Source: a virus (Duplodnaviria > Caudoviricetes). From it: a DNA stretch of 52,888 nt. The translations under genes and the position numbers were made by a program. Of this stretch, positions 46,935-52,888 are shown piece after piece (positions within the stretch are counted from its first letter, which is position 1; every line of letters begins with the position of its first letter). Location: IMG/VR virus record IMGVR_UViG_3300021440_001469, positions 1 through 52,888 of that record. One strand, 5' to 3'. The notes beneath the pieces were generated by a model that worked only from the letters and a program-made list of their open reading frames with translations, was not told where the DNA came from and searched no databases.

Positions 46935-47483
46935 ATGGGCCGCAAGAGCACGATCGACCAGCGCTCAGATGAGTTTCGGAAATACGTTTTCCGTGCGCTG
47001 CGCGAGAACCGCCTGACGCTGGACGAGCTGCGCGCTGAGCTGGAAACGGAGTTTCCGGCCGAGCCGACGCCGAGCCGCTCGGCGCTGGGCCGGCACCGGG
47101 CGAGCGTGGACGAGATGATCGCCCACGAGCGCGAGATGGCCGCGGCAGCCGAAGCGCTGGTGGGCGAGCTGGGCGAGGATTTCGACGCCAAGAGCGGCGC
47201 GCTGCTGGCCCAGGCGGTGACCACGCTGACCAGCCGCTACGCGATGGGCAAGCTGCAGAGCGGCGATGAGATGGATATCGGCGATGTGCTGGACCTGGCG
47301 CGGGCGGCAAAGACGGCGCAGGAGGCCCGGTCGTTGAATTTGAAGGAGCGGCGCGAGGTGGAACGCCTGGCGCGCGAGAAGCTGCTCGAGGAGCAGAAGG
47401 CCAAGCTCGAGGCGATGGGCAGCAAGGCCGGCGTGACCGAAGACACCAAGCGGGCGATCCGCGAGGCGTTGGGGATTGTGTGA
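46935..47483 (+). CDS. DUF3486 (Mu gp27-like small terminase)
   Basis: MGRKSTID...SRSALGRH...IREALGI; precedes TerL. Confidence 0.85.
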   Translation: MGRKSTIDQRSDEFRKYVFRALRENRLTLDELRAELETEFPAEPTPSRSALGRHRASVDEMIAHEREMAAAAEALVGELGEDFDAKSGALLAQAVTTLTSRYAMGKLQSGDEMDIGDVLDLARAAKTAQEARSLNLKERREVERLAREKLLEEQKAKLEAMGSKAGVTEDTKRAIREALGIV

Positions 47484-48892
47484 TGGCCATGCGCAAAGGC
47501 CGCGCGAAGGTCATCCCGGCCAATCCGGACGCGATCTTTCTGCCGTTTCAATCCAGGTGGATTCAGGATGGATCGCGCATCAAGTTGATGGAGAAATCGC
47601 GCCAGATCGGGATCAGCTGGTCGACGGCCTATGGCGCCGACGAGCGGGCGGCCGCGCAGGGGGCGCGCCACGATGAGTGGGTGAGCAGCCGCGATGACAT
47701 CCAGGCGCGGCTGTTCATCGAGGACTGCAAGCTGTGGGCCGGGATCATGAACCTGGCGGCGAAGGATTTGGGCGAGCAGGTGATCGACCCGGAGAAGAAG
47801 CTCAGCGCCTATGTGCTGCAGTTTGCGAGCGGGCGGCGCATCCACAGCATGAGCAGCAACCCGGACGCGCAGGCCGGCAAGCGCGGCAGCCGCATTCTGG
47901 ATGAATTCGCGCTGCATGCCGACCAGCGCAAGCTGTGGGCGATCGCGTATCCGGGCATCACTTGGGGCGGCAGCATGGAGATCGTGAGCACGCACCGGGG
48001 CTCGAACAGCTTCTTCAACGGCCTGATCCGCGAGGCCCGCGAGAAGGGCAACCCGAAACGCATCAGCCTGCACCGGGTGACGCTGCAGGATGCGCTGGAG
48101 CAGGGGTTTTTGTACAAGCTGCAGCAGGCGCTGCCGGCCGATGCGGAGCAGCAGGATATGGACGAGGCGGCGTACTTCGACTTCGTGCGGGGGGGCGCGG
48201 CCGATGAGGAGTCGTTCGACCAGGAATACATGTGCATTCCGGCCGACGACGATGCGAAGTTTCTGGAATATGGGCTGATCACCGGCTGCGAGTACAGCGG
48301 CACCGATTGGCAGCGTGGCCTGGACGGCCCCTTTACCGGGCGGCTGTTCTGCGGGGTGGACATCGGCCGCAAGAAGGATTTGACGGTGTTGTGGGTGGTC
48401 GAGCAGCTGGGCGATGTGCTGTACACGCGCCATGTGGAGACGCTGGAACGCATGCGCAAGAGCGCGCAGGAGGCGGTGCTGTGGCCGTGGTTTGCGCGCT
48501 GCGACCGCATCTGCATCGACGCGACGGGCATGGGCATCGGGTGGGCCGACGATGCGCAGGATGAGTTTGGCGAGCAGCGGGTGGAGGCGGTGAACTTCTC
48601 GGCCCAGGTGAAGGAGGCGCTGGCCTATCCGCTGAAGGGGGCGATGGAAGACCGGATGCTGCGCATTCCGGACGATCCGACGATCCGCGCGGACCTGCGC
48701 AAGGTGCAGAAGGTGACGACGACGGCCGGCAACATCCGCTTTGTGGCGGAGAGCACGCCCGATGGCCACGCGGACCGCTTCTGGGCGCTGGCGCTGGCGA
48801 TCCATGCGGCGAGCGATCCGGCGGCACCGATTGAGTATATGAGCGATGGCGTGGCGCGCGGCGCCGACGCGGAAGGGTTCCTGTATGGCTAA
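47480..48892 (+). CDS. Terminase large subunit
   Basis: KSRQIGIS, ILDEFA, GVDIGRKKD, HADRFWA. Confidence 0.95.
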   Translation: MMAMRKGRAKVIPANPDAIFLPFQSRWIQDGSRIKLMEKSRQIGISWSTAYGADERAAAQGARHDEWVSSRDDIQARLFIEDCKLWAGIMNLAAKDLGEQVIDPEKKLSAYVLQFASGRRIHSMSSNPDAQAGKRGSRILDEFALHADQRKLWAIAYPGITWGGSMEIVSTHRGSNSFFNGLIREAREKGNPKRISLHRVTLQDALEQGFLYKLQQALPADAEQQDMDEAAYFDFVRGGAADEESFDQEYMCIPADDDAKFLEYGLITGCEYSGTDWQRGLDGPFTGRLFCGVDIGRKKDLTVLWVVEQLGDVLYTRHVETLERMRKSAQEAVLWPWFARCDRICIDATGMGIGWADDAQDEFGEQRVEAVNFSAQVKEALAYPLKGAMEDRMLRIPDDPTIRADLRKVQKVTTTAGNIRFVAESTPDGHADRFWALALAIHAASDPAAPIEYMSDGVARGADAEGFLYG

Positions 48893-50402
48893 GATGAGCA
48901 CGGCGGCGCCGGAGCTGGAAACGGAAGTTGCGAGCCGGCTGCGCGATCCGTTCGAGCAGCACTACATGGGGGTCATCCAGACGGCGGACCCGCTGCTGAT
49001 CGAGAAGGGCGATCCGAACGGCGAGATTTACCGCGACTTGAAGCGCGATGGAAAGGTGTTCTCCGGCCTGCAAAAGCGCAAGCTGGCCCTGGTGGGCCGC
49101 GAGTGGCAGGTGGTGCCGGTGCAGGACGGTGCGGCGCAGTCGGCAGATGCCGTGATCGTCAGCGACATCCTGAAGCGCTGCGCGTTCGACCAGGTGTGCC
49201 AGGATTTGCTGGATGCGCTGCTGCGCGGTTTTGCGGTGATGGAGATCGTGTGGACCGTGCGCGACGGGTATTACGTGCCGGCGCGCATCATGAAGCGGGC
49301 GCAGCGGCGCTTCAAGTACGTGCAGACCGACGAGCATGCGCCGCCGGAACTGCGCCTGCTGACCCAGTCCAACATGCTGACCGGCGAGGCGCTGCCGGCG
49401 CGCAAGTTCATCGCCCATCGGGTCAATCCGGAGGATGACAATCCGTATGGCACGGGCCTCGGGCTGCAGTTGTACTGGCCGGTGTTCTTCAAGCGCAAGG
49501 GCATCATTGCCTGGAACAAGCTGAATGACCGCTTCGGTTCACCGACGCCGTGGGGCCGCTATCCGCGCAACGCTTCGCCGAAGGAGAAGGCGACGCTGTT
49601 TTCCGCGCTGAAGGCGATGTCGAACGACGGCGTGCTGATGACGCCCGAAGGCATGCTGATCGATCTGCTGGAAACCAAGTTGACCGGGTCGGTGACGACG
49701 CAGCAGGCGCTATGTGAGTACATGGATGACTGGATTGCCGAGGTGCTGCTGGGCCAGGAGCCGCGCACCAGCGGCGGCGGCGCGCTGGCGGCGGCGAGCA
49801 AGGAGCGCGCGGCGGTGCGGCTGGACCTGGTGCAGGCGGATTCGGATTTGCTGTCGGCGACGCTGAACGAGACGCTGGTGGCGTGGATTTGCGAACTGAA
49901 CGGCCTGGCGCCGTGCCAGGTGTTCCGCGAGATTGCCGAAGAGGAAGACAAGAAGGCCGAGTCGGAGACGGATAAGAACGTGTCCGAGATGGGCTTCGAG
50001 CTGAGCGAAGAGGCGGCGCGGGAGAAGTACGGCGAGGGGTGGAGCAGGAAGGCGGCAGCGACGCCGCCAGGATCTCGGCCGGTACCGCCGGCCACGAAAC
50101 CGGCGGGTGGTGGCGTGGATGATGCGAAGGACGTGAATTTTGCGGAGGCGGGCAGCGCCGATGCCATTGATGTGCTTGTCGATGAGGCGCTGGCCGGCTG
50201 GAAACCGATGATGCAGCCCTTTGCTACGGCGCTGCAGGCGGAGCTGGACGCGGCGGTGCAGGCCGGGGAGACAGCGGGCGAGTTCCTGGCCCGGTTGCCG
50301 GCGCTGCTCGCGAAGATGGACCCGGCCCTGCTCGAGCAAGACCTCACAAAGGCGGCGTCGACGGCGCGTTTTGCAGGGATATCGGGGGTGAGCAATGCCT
50401 GA
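48885..50402 (+). CDS. Portal protein (DUF935, Mu gp29-like)
   Basis: RDGKVFSGLQKRK, LLDALLRGFAV.EIVW, NPYG.GL, RFGSP. Confidence 0.9.
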   Translation: MAKMSTAAPELETEVASRLRDPFEQHYMGVIQTADPLLIEKGDPNGEIYRDLKRDGKVFSGLQKRKLALVGREWQVVPVQDGAAQSADAVIVSDILKRCAFDQVCQDLLDALLRGFAVMEIVWTVRDGYYVPARIMKRAQRRFKYVQTDEHAPPELRLLTQSNMLTGEALPARKFIAHRVNPEDDNPYGTGLGLQLYWPVFFKRKGIIAWNKLNDRFGSPTPWGRYPRNASPKEKATLFSALKAMSNDGVLMTPEGMLIDLLETKLTGSVTTQQALCEYMDDWIAEVLLGQEPRTSGGGALAAASKERAAVRLDLVQADSDLLSATLNETLVAWICELNGLAPCQVFREIAEEEDKKAESETDKNVSEMGFELSEEAAREKYGEGWSRKAAATPPGSRPVPPATKPAGGGVDDAKDVNFAEAGSADAIDVLVDEALAGWKPMMQPFATALQAELDAAVQAGETAGEFLARLPALLAKMDPALLEQDLTKAASTARFAGISGVSNA

Positions 50403-51747
50403 GTCGGCTGCGCAGGCATTCGCGGACGCCTATCGGCTGAAGCCGGCCGAGGCGGTGGCATACATGGCCGGCCGGGACTCGGCCAGGGTGAGCTATGACT
50501 GGCGGGATGTGTGGCAAGACGAGCATGCCCGGCAGTTCACGGTGTCTCGGTTGGCCCGGTTGGATCTGGTGGAAGGTATCCGCGATCAGATCACCCGATC
50601 GGTCGGGGGGGATCTGACCCGGCGGGACTACATGCGGAACGGCGAGGCACTGCTCAGCAAGGCTGGCTGGTGGGGCGAAAAGACGGTGATCGACCCGGAA
50701 ACGGGGGATGCCGTGACCACGGTGTTCAATCCGGCCCGGCTTAAGCTGATTTTCGATGTAAACACGCGGATGGCCTATTCGGCAGGGCAGTGGGAGCGCG
50801 TGCAACGGACCAAAGCATCGCATCCGTACATCAGGTATGTGACCAAGGGCGATGAACGCGTGCGGGCATCTCACGCGGTGTGGAACAACGTGACGCTGCC
50901 TGTTGATGACCCGTTCTGGCAATCACACTGGCCGCCAAACGGATGGCGGTGCCGTTGTAGGGTGGTAGCGATCAGCCAGCGCGACTACGACGCAGCGGTG
51001 GCGCCGACAGGGGCGCCGCTGATCAAGGTTGCGCCGGAAACAGGGACACGGGAGTGGGTGAATCAGCGTACCGGAGAGGTGGTAGAGGTGCCGGTGGGCA
51101 TCGATCCGGGTTTTGGCTACAACCCGGGCAAGGCCGGGCTGGCCGAGAAGGGCAAGCGGCTGCTCGACAAGGCCTTGGTGACCGATCCGCGCACGGCCAG
51201 CGTTGCCGTACAGGAGGCGCTGCGCAACGATAAGGTGCTTGACGCACTGACCAAGGACTTCGGCGGATTCTCCAGGCAGTGGATTGGGGAGGTGCGCCAG
51301 GCCGAGAGGGCGGCCGCTGCCGGTGAGAACTATGCGGTCAAGACCCGTGGGGAGCTGCGCCACGTGGGGGCGCTGTCGCCCGTGGTGCTGGACGGGCTCT
51401 ATAGGCGAGACATGGCGCCGGAATCGGCGATCATGAGTGTTCGCGACGAGGATGTGGTGCACAGCTTTCGCTCGGCGAAGACGTCGCCGCTGCCCGAGGA
51501 CTGGTATGCCGACCTGCCGCGGCATCTGATGGCGCAGAAGGCCGTGCTGCTGGATACGACGAAGACAAACCTGCCAGCCTTGCTGATGGTGTTTGACATG
51601 CCGAACCAGACGGGCAAGCTGGTCGTCGAGCTGGATTACAGGGTAAAGGACGGCGGGAAGAAGATTCGCGCGAACATCGTCCGGTCCGGCCGGGTGGAAG
51701 ACGTGAATTCGTTGCGCGGCTTTGACGTGTTGGAGGGGGCGCTCTGA
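50395..51747 (+). CDS. MuF head morphogenesis protein with a C-terminal extension (possible PBECR/BECR-fold domain)
   Basis: RLKLIFDVN, DERVRASH, DDPFW..HWPPNGWRCRC, IDPGFGYNPG, then about 200 extra aa. Confidence 0.9.
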   Translation: MPESAAQAFADAYRLKPAEAVAYMAGRDSARVSYDWRDVWQDEHARQFTVSRLARLDLVEGIRDQITRSVGGDLTRRDYMRNGEALLSKAGWWGEKTVIDPETGDAVTTVFNPARLKLIFDVNTRMAYSAGQWERVQRTKASHPYIRYVTKGDERVRASHAVWNNVTLPVDDPFWQSHWPPNGWRCRCRVVAISQRDYDAAVAPTGAPLIKVAPETGTREWVNQRTGEVVEVPVGIDPGFGYNPGKAGLAEKGKRLLDKALVTDPRTASVAVQEALRNDKVLDALTKDFGGFSRQWIGEVRQAERAAAAGENYAVKTRGELRHVGALSPVVLDGLYRRDMAPESAIMSVRDEDVVHSFRSAKTSPLPEDWYADLPRHLMAQKAVLLDTTKTNLPALLMVFDMPNQTGKLVVELDYRVKDGGKKIRANIVRSGRVEDVNSLRGFDVLEGAL

Positions 51748-51864
51748 GCGAGGGCGGGATTCGAACCCGCGTCACCGTAATCCCGCGCCGTCCGGTTGCC
51801 CGAGCTGGCCAGCACGTTGAGGACTACGTCCCGTCTGCCTGAATGGGGCTCTACCCGCTCAGAG
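51742..51864 (-). ncRNA. tRNA-like RNA (non-canonical)
   Basis: Perfect T-arm GCGGG-TTCGAAT-CCCGC, terminal stem CTCTGAGCG/CGCTCAGAG, long central stem CGTAGTCC/GGATTACG capped by a GCAA tetraloop. Confidence 0.65.
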
Positions 51865-51871
51865 TCATTCA

Positions 51872-51880
51872 AGGATAGCA
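51872..51880 (-). promoter_or_regulatory. Extended -10 promoter for the tRNA-like RNA
   Basis: TGCTATCCT on the minus strand, 7 nt upstream of the terminal stem. Confidence 0.55.
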
Positions 51881-51883
51881 AAC

Positions 51884-52330
51884 ATGAGTGTCACGATCAG
51901 CATCAACGACGAGGCGATCCTCGAATTCCTGCACGGCCTTATGCGCAAGTCCCAGGACTTGACGCCACTGATGGATGATATCGGCGCGGCGATGGATAAA
52001 CGGGTGTCGGATCGCTTCGAGACTGAGAGCGACCCGATGGGCGTACCATGGTCGCCGTGGGCGGAATCGACGCGCAAGAGCTACCCCGAGAACGGACATG
52101 GCCGGCTGCTCGATCGCCTCGGTGACATGCTGGGGGGGCGGAGCTACACGGCGGACGCGACGAGCATGACTTATGGCTTCGATCAGCCCTACGCGGCATA
52201 TCATGAGTTCGGGACCAAACACATGCCGAGGCGCGGCATGCTTGCAGCCGATCCGGAGGCTGGTACATTGTCGGAAGGCGATCAGGCGGCCGTGCTCGAC
52301 ATCCTCCTGAACTACCTTTCCGAAACCTGA
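51884..52330 (+). CDS. Virion morphogenesis protein (Mu gpG-like)
   Basis: DLTPLMDDIG...RFETESDP.G.PW...YAAYHEFG..HMPRR. Confidence 0.9.
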   Translation: MSVTISINDEAILEFLHGLMRKSQDLTPLMDDIGAAMDKRVSDRFETESDPMGVPWSPWAESTRKSYPENGHGRLLDRLGDMLGGRSYTADATSMTYGFDQPYAAYHEFGTKHMPRRGMLAADPEAGTLSEGDQAAVLDILLNYLSET

Positions 52331-52419
52331 TTTGCGCCGCGCCGCGGGCTTTCGCCACTGAAAACACATTTTCACCCGGCCGCCCGCTATTTCCCCCTAC
52401 CGCCCACTAAATCCCGGAT

Positions 52420-52460: not shown

Positions 52461-52888
52461 CCCTGCCGCGGGGCGCGGTAGGACGCCCCGTCGAGGGTCA
52501 GGCAATAGGCGTTGTGGCGCAGCCGATCGACGGTGGCCGAGGCGAGCAGGCGGTTGCCCGGGAAGGCCTGGTCCCACTCGGTGAAGTCGAGGTTGCTGGT
52601 GACGATGGTGGCGGCCTGCTCGTAGCGCTCGGCGATCAGATCGTGCAGATCCTCGTCGGCCGGGGCGCGCAGCGGCTTGAGGCCAAAGTCGTCGATGATC
52701 AGCACCGGCACCCGGGCCAGCTGCTGGAGCTTTCGCTCGTAGTGGCCGATCGCCCGCGCCGCGTTGAGGCTGGCGAGCAGCTGCGCACAGGACGCAAACA
52801 CCACGTCCTGCCCCTGGCGCACCGCGCAGTGCCCGAGGGCCTGCGCCAGATGGCTCTTGCCGGTGCCGCAGGGCCCGGCGATCAGCAC
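52461..52888 (-). pseudogene. istB: IS21-family helper ATPase IstB, interrupted by the prophage (5' part outside window)
   Basis: GPCGTGKSHLA, LIIDDFG, TIVTSN, DRLRH, GASYR. Confidence 0.92.

Follow-up and report, generated by a model that had tools for sequence, protein, structure and literature searches.

A tRNA-like antisense RNA gene behind the MuF head protein gene of Mu-like phages and its possible role as an RNA immunity factor

The locus described here raises the question of what, if not an immunity protein, accompanies the predicted ribonuclease (RNase) tail of a phage head protein. The window, by which we mean the whole stretch of DNA analysed, is an IMG/VR provirus record of 52,888 nucleotides (nt) (IMGVR_UViG_3300021440_001469; Caudoviricetes), labelled L001 in our comparisons. 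A Mu-type head module occupies its right end on the plus strand, and within this module a gap separates gene F, which encodes the MuF protein, from gene G (Table 1). An earlier note on this sequence had remarked that no protein immunity gene follows MuF. We confirm that there is none directly 3′ of F: an RNA element on the minus strand fills the 136-nt gap, and G follows. We consider this element very probably a real small-RNA gene, and it is likely to be functionally tied to the RNase-type tail of F. To the proposal that it partners a virion-borne RNase domain as an immunity RNA or antitoxin, occupying the domain as a tRNA mimic that has no scissile loop, we give even weight.

Every part that the earlier note had listed for the gap is present: a minus-strand fold of ~123 nt with a perfect T-arm, an acceptor-like closing stem, a D-like hairpin, an oversized central arm, an extended −10, and an overlap with the stop codon of F. 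The T-arm meets the canonical tRNA pattern (5-bp stem, UUCRANY loop) and lies one nucleotide from the closing stem, while 13 unpaired nucleotides separate it from the central arm. The D-like arm carries a GG dinucleotide, and its helix is only moderately supported, with 83% of cells paired. An anticodon arm with a 7-nt loop is missing, as is CCA.

We gathered relatives of F from IMG/VR (80 loci), species genomes (75), and metagenomes (76). Among these loci, L002 is the sole relative with the same element. The two RNAs are identical at 116 of 123 nt (94.3%). Identity is 75% over the final 150 nt of F, 71.5% over the initial 150 nt of G, and 74% and 62% for the F and G proteins, respectively. 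The noncoding stretch is therefore the best-conserved part of the region. All seven differences between the two RNAs fall in stems, with none in loops, junctions, the T-arm, or the closing stem. One changes a G-C to a G-U pair in the D-like arm, and the other six lie in the central stem, including one compensatory change from C-G to U-A; the U-G pairs of these RNAs work on the minus strand only. Exact-pattern searches of IMG/VR returned no match for a 40-nt stretch of the window and a single match, from an already-known contig, for a 17-mer from the D-arm of the TL-1 group described below.

Shorter gap RNAs of 79 to 93 nt occur at the same site and on the same strand in relatives with the same type of F C-terminus. 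They share the plan of a −10 box, closing stem, D-like arm, short middle hairpin, and T-arm, and their G-U pairs also fit the minus strand. We divided them into the groups TL-1 (L023, L093, L094, L104, L189, and L220) and TL-2 (L005, L006, L009, L013, L085, L087, and L157). Across the six TL-1 sequences 92.5% of cells are paired, with 10 double-change pairs, a result matched by none of 500 shuffles and set against 38 to 52% for slid controls. T-stem covariation in the relatives includes changes from C-G to U-A at two pairs. A covariance model, R1, was built from the six TL-1 RNAs with the window left out. Searched against the window, R1 placed the gap RNA at the top (25.9 bits, E value of 0.003), followed by a match at 18.8 bits; it scored L002 at 27.1 bits and the TL-2 RNAs at 24 to 31 bits. 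We then fitted 14 sequences (window, L002, TL-1, and TL-2) to R1. In this alignment, A5, pairing extends to 90.1% of cells, and double changes occur at 19 of 25 pairs and, in the closing-stem helix, at 12 of 12. Covariation, a check proposed in the earlier note, is present across these sequences. A MAFFT alignment of the window with TL-1 (A1) was dropped in favor of A5 since the expanded central arm misaligned its 5′ half. For TL-2, RNAalifold uses invariant columns to pair the D-like and T-loop regions, and covariation decides neither for that fold nor for the T-arm.

R1 also indicates where such RNAs are found. In 178 related loci it gave 21 matches at an E value of ≤1, of which 19 lie on the minus strand directly after F. 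One of the remaining two is a real tRNA-Gln and the other was not inspected; since a real tRNA-Gln scores 22 bits, the model is itself tRNA-like. At an E value of ≤1e-4, R1 matched only one of 151 genomes of the class of host genome G003, namely, G003 itself, the source of an R1 training sequence, and no free-standing copies were seen there. Three loci (L025 4285-4601, L027 3134-3456, and L097, with a 327-nt gap) hold three tandem RNA genes in the F-G gap, each with its own −10: one TL-1-like RNA (43 bits, with a degenerate T-loop) and two cloverleaves of class B, a class defined below.

The gap RNA is not a canonical tRNA, since ARAGORN reports no tRNA or tmRNA gene in the whole window, as the earlier note had anticipated, and the best Rfam match, to tRNA (RF00005), reaches 18.8 bits against a cutoff of 29 (E value of 0.9) and covers the acceptor and T-arm only. 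The mascRNA-menRNA family scores 17.2 bits against a cutoff of 42.5, and no Rfam family reaches its gathering score in the window region (2.6 kb around F and G) or in 19 related loci. Similarly, the 22-nt T-arm plus 3′ strand has no counterpart with ≤1 mismatch in 401 genomes (the order of one host) and none with ≤2 mismatches in 4 host genomes, which leaves an origin from the 3′ half of a host tRNA, or from an attachment site, without support. In relatives of the window, ARAGORN labels two F-G gap RNAs on the minus strand (L189 3388-3472 and L220 1321-1405) as tRNA-Gly(gcc) of 85 nt.

The earlier note had called the C-terminal part of F an extension. This part is not unusual: in a tblastn comparison F aligns with Mu gp30 over residues 1 to 448 in one piece at 30% identity, and phrog_220 covers its residues 5 to 420 (E value of 3.4e-83). 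Judged by sequence, F is orthologous to Mu gp30 (“minor head protein and DNA pilot”) along its whole length and is an ordinary long Mu F, and its C-terminus is the published MuF-C/PBECR region. In the passages drawn on here, Iyer et al. (2017, J Bacteriol, PMC5512222) assign the C-terminus of Mu gp30 (MuF-C) to the PBECR domain, a BECR-fold RNase; describe the usual active site as a His in the N-terminal helix together with an S/T in strand 4; and regard Mu's own copy as inactive (“probably RNA binding”) and orthologues as active. We predict that the C-terminal domain of the window's F is a PBECR (BECR-fold) RNase in which the helix histidine and strand serine are kept. An AlphaFold2 model of residues 276 to 450 (mean predicted local distance difference test score of 84.2; predicted template modeling score of 0.78) places His356 within helix 76-85 and Ser431 within strand 147-160 (model numbering). 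An exhaustive VIA-align comparison of structures is headed by BECR RNases, namely, BrnT (Z of 5.1), 7vd7 (4.7), colicin D (4.3), CdiA-CT NC101 (4.1), and Kp342 (3.7), with RelE, HigB, YoeB, and colicin E5 in further rows. Mu aligns within the hidden Markov model (HMM) built from the window's C-terminal class, CT1; no dedicated MuF-C model was seen among the Pfam matches. Relatives with other tails match Pfam PBECR2 at 65.5 and 73.6 bits.

We asked whether the content of the gap follows the tail of F. Among 80 unique F-G junctions, a gap of ≥80 nt accompanies 53 of 58 long F (≥380 amino acids [aa]), while a gap of <30 nt accompanies 13 of 18 short F (≤320 aa), and most tail-less F overlap G. 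Five short F are followed by a gap, one of which (L189) is a truncated open reading frame (ORF) call of a long F, while three of these gaps hold a small plus-strand ORF. Among relatives, the N-terminal MuF domain is 55 to 68% identical and the C-termini fall into 12 unrelated classes. Gap content changes with these classes. The 22 junctions of CT1 include 11 with RNA class TL and 5 with class B, a cloverleaf of the TL plan with a different third loop; in L094, L096, and L124 (CT1), TL-1 is present though a motif rule missed it. CT2 is paired with RNA class C or E in 10 of 13 junctions, CT3 (Pfam PBECR3 at 20.5 bits, below cutoff) with class D in 7 of 7, and CT4 (PBECR2, E value of 6.5e-18) with class F in 4 of 4. 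The RNAs of classes D and C, each class with its own covarying stems, are structured but not tRNA-like. Behind ADP-ribosyltransferase and HExxH tails, the gap holds a conserved plus-strand small ORF of 64 to 113 aa, whose product is a candidate immunity protein by its location in the classical immunity-protein position. This small ORF overlaps the F stop codon in L047 and L066 (ADP-ribosyltransferase tails) and in L014, L040, and L016 (HExxH tails). Where G is not adjacent in CT1 loci, the element still abuts the F stop codon; the RNA thus follows F and not G.

Within CT1, we compared the presence of the RNA to the state of the predicted active site in 35 proteins with enough downstream DNA, scoring the His in a nine-residue helix stretch. 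RNA-linked CT1 proteins keep the helix His, which sits a few residues further on in the TL-1/B clade, and their last long strand retains an S/T, which one clade replaces by a His. The helix His is present in 32 of the 35 proteins. A strict detector that requires both the closing stem and a −10 was passed by 19 of these 32 loci and by 6 of 613 random positions; the closing stem alone was uninformative (355 of 613 random positions pass) and was not used. Ten of the 32 have a closing stem but no −10 by regular expression, and the last three (L013, L113, and L037) have shorter stems that were seen by eye. Meanwhile, L039 and L185 have neither the His nor the S/T, and Mu and JBD67 lack the His; in all four, the distance from F to G is −4 to 10 nt and there is no RNA.

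The cultured phages illustrate the same pattern. Phage B3 has the His and a Ser, a 123-nt gap, a TATAGT box, and an 11-bp closing stem, while JBD67, of B3's genus, has a Pro at the His position and no gap. Pasteurella phage AFS-2018a has the His, a Thr, and a TL-2 RNA. In B3 (L237 1633-1755, equal to NC_006548 18971-19093), a 32-aa hypothetical protein, ORF34, is annotated over the minus-strand element; judging from the sequence, this ORF is probably spurious. We placed 42 F proteins in a quick maximum-likelihood tree, in which the placements of B3/JBD67 and L039/L185 are starred and the long branches of Mu, AFS-2018a, TJ1, and L140 are placed uncertainly. F proteins without His and RNA occur at three places in this tree: Mu alone, JBD67 as sister to B3 (support of 100), and L039/L185 on a long branch in the TL-1/B clade. 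Three separate places point to three joint losses of RNA and His. The suggestion that the RNA is a partner of the MuF C-terminal domain is thereby sustained in part: the element is on the minus strand, is associated with a promoter, and tracks the domain class, and it is absent after short F and after His-less F in three lineages; the partnership itself stays a proposal.

Besides the three TL-1 copies in its prophages, host genome G003 carries a fourth, scoring 64 bits, which is intact and has the same promoter (L247, equal to G003:C1:416475-419563; 1465-1590 and 2085-2185). Adjacent to this fourth copy is a 38-aa remnant of a CT1 C-terminus, which matches the end of the CT1 domain with an E value of 4e-4 in a single comparison. 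A MuF gene whose tail is PBECR3-like, accompanied by a class-D-like antisense RNA of its own, is ~530 nt away. In this one case, assessed by eye, the arrangement resembles the “orphan” modules that become displaced in polymorphic toxin loci, and the RNA has stayed intact. A DNA-methylase-like reading frame lies between the orphan TL-1 copy and the MuF-PBECR3-like gene.

In 19 CT1 relatives, and likewise in B3 and AFS-2018a, a TAnnnT box precedes the closing stem by 3 to 14 nt, compared to the same 6 of 613 random positions. Several of these are full promoters by eye, such as TTGATG-17-TAGAAT in L009 and TTGACG-15-TATACT in L094, well away from G. In sequence archives, the sole RNA-labelled run found to match was X1, a freshwater metatranscriptome (0.28 of words), whose contigs are unstranded, are exact over 51628-51826 and 51993-52149, and span the 3′ end of F with part of the RNA, and part of G. 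Runs X2 and X3 hold L002-like contigs over 51718-51896. These contigs speak neither for nor against transcription, as they give no strand, start, or level and could derive from DNA or late mRNA.

From this evidence we propose, with slightly less than even confidence, that Mu-like phages carry a polymorphic effector-immunity system with an RNA immunity factor, in which each virion-borne PBECR tail family has its own antisense structured RNA, and that the RNA in the window, an anticodon-less tRNA mimic, blocks the RNase as a pseudo-substrate. Transcription would run from the extended −10, opposite to the late operon, starting at or just before the 11-bp closing stem. The product would be a four-armed RNA of ~123 nt whose tRNA-like T-arm stacks on the closing stem and in which a long hairpin replaces the anticodon arm. 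As a tRNA mimic without a cleavable loop, it may bind the RNase domain of F in place of a substrate. Such binding could protect the lysogen and the producing cell from the RNase, or blunt the same effector upon its injection by a sibling phage.

Several observations weigh against this proposal. The class-for-class match of RNA and F tail could be plain linkage of neighboring DNA. Among CT1 proteins, L140 has an Arg for the His and yet a 123-nt gap, and L036 has the His and the RNA but an Asn at the S/T column. The His-in-helix and S/T-in-strand pattern of the window's F rests on columns placed from the text of PMC5512222, not from its figure. No MuF-C domain has been demonstrated as an RNase, and Iyer et al. 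deem Mu's inactive in the passages cited above. In the homology check on the MuF C-terminus suggested in the earlier note, BECR RNases head the VIA-align list, while Foldseek with the AlphaFold2 model found no PDB match at an E value of ≤0.001, and the Pfam PBECR models do not match F residues 241 to 450 even at an E value of ≤10. The fold match agrees with the published assignment and is weak by itself (Z of ≤5.1). Regarding expression, the window's −10 hexamer matches at only 4 of 6 positions with an upstream TG, and it overlaps the complement of the ribosome-binding site of G; a two-hexamer scan of 51400-52400 found no promoter, and no terminator was found there; and the X1 contigs lend transcription no support, being unstranded and also lying over F and G coding DNA. 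Finally, the folding energy of the gap RNA is not beyond chance (minus-strand z of −0.87, with 35 of 200 shuffles as good), and neither strand is significant. Since folding energy alone is unremarkable, the case for more than a chance structure rests on comparison.

We weighed the proposed RNA immunity factor against four other explanations. The gap RNA might be a substrate or cargo of F, such that the PBECR domain cuts or binds it and an RNA-protein particle is packaged, injected, and acts against the host, for example, against RNA-based defences. We think this unlikely, although it predicts the same tie to the catalytic His and the same class-for-class match, F belongs to the virion and bears a DNA-pilot annotation, and RNA binding is what Iyer et al. 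propose for MuF-C in the passages at hand (PMC5512222). An orphan TL-1 copy with a promoter beside a decayed CT1 remnant suits immunity better, as do the small protein ORFs that occupy the same slot behind ADP-ribosyltransferase and metalloprotease tails; neither point is decisive. A role as a cis-antisense regulator (type I-like), in which the RNA would pair with the late mRNA between F and G so as to control either gene, or to shut off leaky late transcription in lysogens, appears somewhat less probable again. The RNA and the late mRNA are full complements over the gap, the RNA's promoter overlaps the ribosome-binding site of G, and such regulation is also compatible with an antitoxin function linked to activity of the F domain. 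However, antisense pairing needs no T-loop, D-like loop, or four-way junction, and it is the loops and junctions of L001 and L002 that are invariant while the stems vary. The same T-arm is found as far off as Pasteurella phage AFS-2018a, the RNA abuts F even without an adjacent G, and the orphan copy has no intact target gene.

Two further explanations detach the element from F. The RNA could act as a decoy or sponge that diverts a host defence aimed at tRNAs, or a tRNA-binding factor of the host, and its tRNA-like T-arm, D-like arm, and acceptor-like stack would fit such a role, as would the resemblance of its gene to a moron with its own promoter. Yet it offers no anticodon loop for anticodon nucleases to cut, and a decoy acting independently of F predicts neither the loss of the RNA along with the F His nor the presence of non-tRNA-like RNAs beside other PBECR families. 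We accordingly find the decoy against host anticodon nucleases, which the earlier note had entertained, unsupported, and any F-independent decoy quite improbable. Least credible, to the point of being very improbable, is the view that the element is left over from a dead tRNA or an attachment site, or that a spacer folds this way by chance. The subthreshold Rfam match to acceptor and T-arm and the nonsignificant folding energy would agree with it, but the attachment-site match that would identify such a fragment was absent from all 401 and all 4 genomes searched, and the RNA is better conserved than the flanking genes, covaries over 14 sequences, and keeps a fixed position and strand.

How would an RNA immunity factor compare to known systems? 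In type III toxin-antitoxin systems (ToxIN, CptIN, and TenpIN), an RNA neutralises an endoribonuclease by direct binding, and the same idea is what we propose for F. The type III antitoxin RNA consists of tandem repeats that precede the toxin gene on its own strand, with a terminator in between, and the toxin, a protein of another fold, processes them. In contrast, the gap RNA is single, convergent with and 3′ of F, and tRNA-like, with a promoter of its own and no terminator found, and the predicted BECR-fold domain belongs to a virion protein; where three RNAs stand in tandem, as in L025 and L027, they are separate genes, each with its own −10. Bacterial Y RNA YrlA and mascRNA are tRNA-like RNAs without a decoding function. 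The gap RNA shares with them a T-arm and D-like module able to form a tRNA elbow and the lack of a usable anticodon, whereas it ends on the acceptor side, lies within a phage head operon, and matches no Rfam family at threshold (the search covered 2.6 kb around F-G; an Rsr/Ro gene could lie elsewhere in the window).

The closest published relatives are the MuF proteins themselves. Jamet et al. (2017, BMC Biol, PMC5576092) report, in the parts drawn on here, that many proteobacterial MuF proteins carry C-terminal extensions of unknown function (Ct_MAD). With the MuF polymorphic toxins of that paper, as far as its cited parts describe them, our loci share a conserved MuF N-terminus, a variable C-terminal effector, a temperate phage setting, and a cognate factor directly 3′. 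The known immunity factors are proteins, whereas here the factor would be an antisense structured RNA, and for RNase-type tails only. With the MuF-C/PBECR proteins of PMC5512222, to the extent of the passages used, the window's F shares the full-length Mu gp30 alignment and the His plus S/T pattern, and its relatives carry PBECR2 and PBECR3-like tails. The section and passages of PMC5512222 that we cite give no RNA partner or immunity factor for MuF-C/PBECR domains, nor do they mention antisense RNA genes or a tie between these and the catalytic residues. More generally, no RNA partner for MuF, MuF-C, or PBECR was found in the literature searched.

MuF-C/Ct_MAD tails are common on the head proteins of temperate proteobacterial phages, and the published work, in the portions cited, predicts that they are RNases and names no substrate or immunity factor. 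A dedicated RNA partner, if true, would account for the missing immunity protein. Polymorphic toxin systems would gain a branch with RNA immunity, and RNA antitoxins a new architecture, while the shape of the mimic, a tRNA minus its anticodon loop, would suggest that the injected RNase acts on tRNA. Cultured phages for a comparison are at hand in B3, with the His and the gap element, and its relative JBD67, with neither. The comparisons also flag annotation errors, namely, the two gap elements called tRNA-Gly by ARAGORN and the 32-aa ORF over the B3 element, and further gap RNAs may stand as odd tRNAs in public records.

Table 1. Features of the head module, gene F, the F-G gap, and its RNA element in the window
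Feature	Position	Strand	Basis or remark
Large terminase gene	47480-48889	+	Head module
Mu portal gene	48846-50399	+	Head module
Gene F (MuF, 450 aa)	50395..51747	+	ORF; Pfam Phage_Mu_F at aa 111-190, E 7.6e-17
Predicted MuF-C/PBECR-like C-terminal domain of F, ~aa 318-450	51346..51744	+	HMM of CT1 C-termini, 136.6 bits
Candidate catalytic His356 codon	51460-51462	+	“DEDVVHSFR”
Candidate Ser431 codon	51685-51687	+	“NIVRSGRV”
F-G gap, 136 nt	51748-51883	− (element inside)	Between the F and G ORFs
tRNA-like RNA gene without anticodon loop, 123 nt (very probable), expanded member of the TL-1 group	51742..51864	−	Sequence; R1 model; L002 conservation; 14-sequence alignment
Extended −10, TGCTATCCT	51872..51880	−	Sequence; 7 nt upstream of the closing stem
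Closing (acceptor-like) stem, 5′ strand, CUCUGAGCGGG	51854..51864	−	11 bp with 51742-51752
Closing stem, 3′ strand, CUCGCUCAGAG	51742..51752	−	Spans the F stop codon TGA (51745-51747)
D-like arm, GCCCC-AUUCAGGCAGAC-GGGAC	51830..51849	−	By-eye alignment with TL-1 GCCCUG-ACAGGUAA-CGGGAC
Central arm at the anticodon-arm position, 10-bp stem (one mismatch) and 12-nt loop	51784..51816	−	L001/L002 differences; U-G pairs valid on the minus strand only
T-arm, GCGGG-UUCGAAU-CCCGC	51754..51770	−	Rfam tRNA partial match; T-stem covariation in relatives
Gene G (virion morphogenesis/neck protein, 148 aa)	51884..52330	+	ORF; Pfam Phage_tail_S, E 7.2e-19

Two minor observations concern the surroundings of F. 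In two loci of alphaproteobacterial type (L030 5444-5528 and L106 4944-5028, plus strand), ARAGORN reports a tRNA-SeC(tca) ~1.1 kb 3′ of F. In the window itself, a fragment of an IS21-family IstB ATPase gene lies on the minus strand from 52448 to the record end at 52888 (Pfam IstB_IS21, E value of 5.4e-42). Since this fragment begins ~120 nt past G and the record ends within the insertion sequence, the head module is interrupted where a protease/scaffold gene would be expected.

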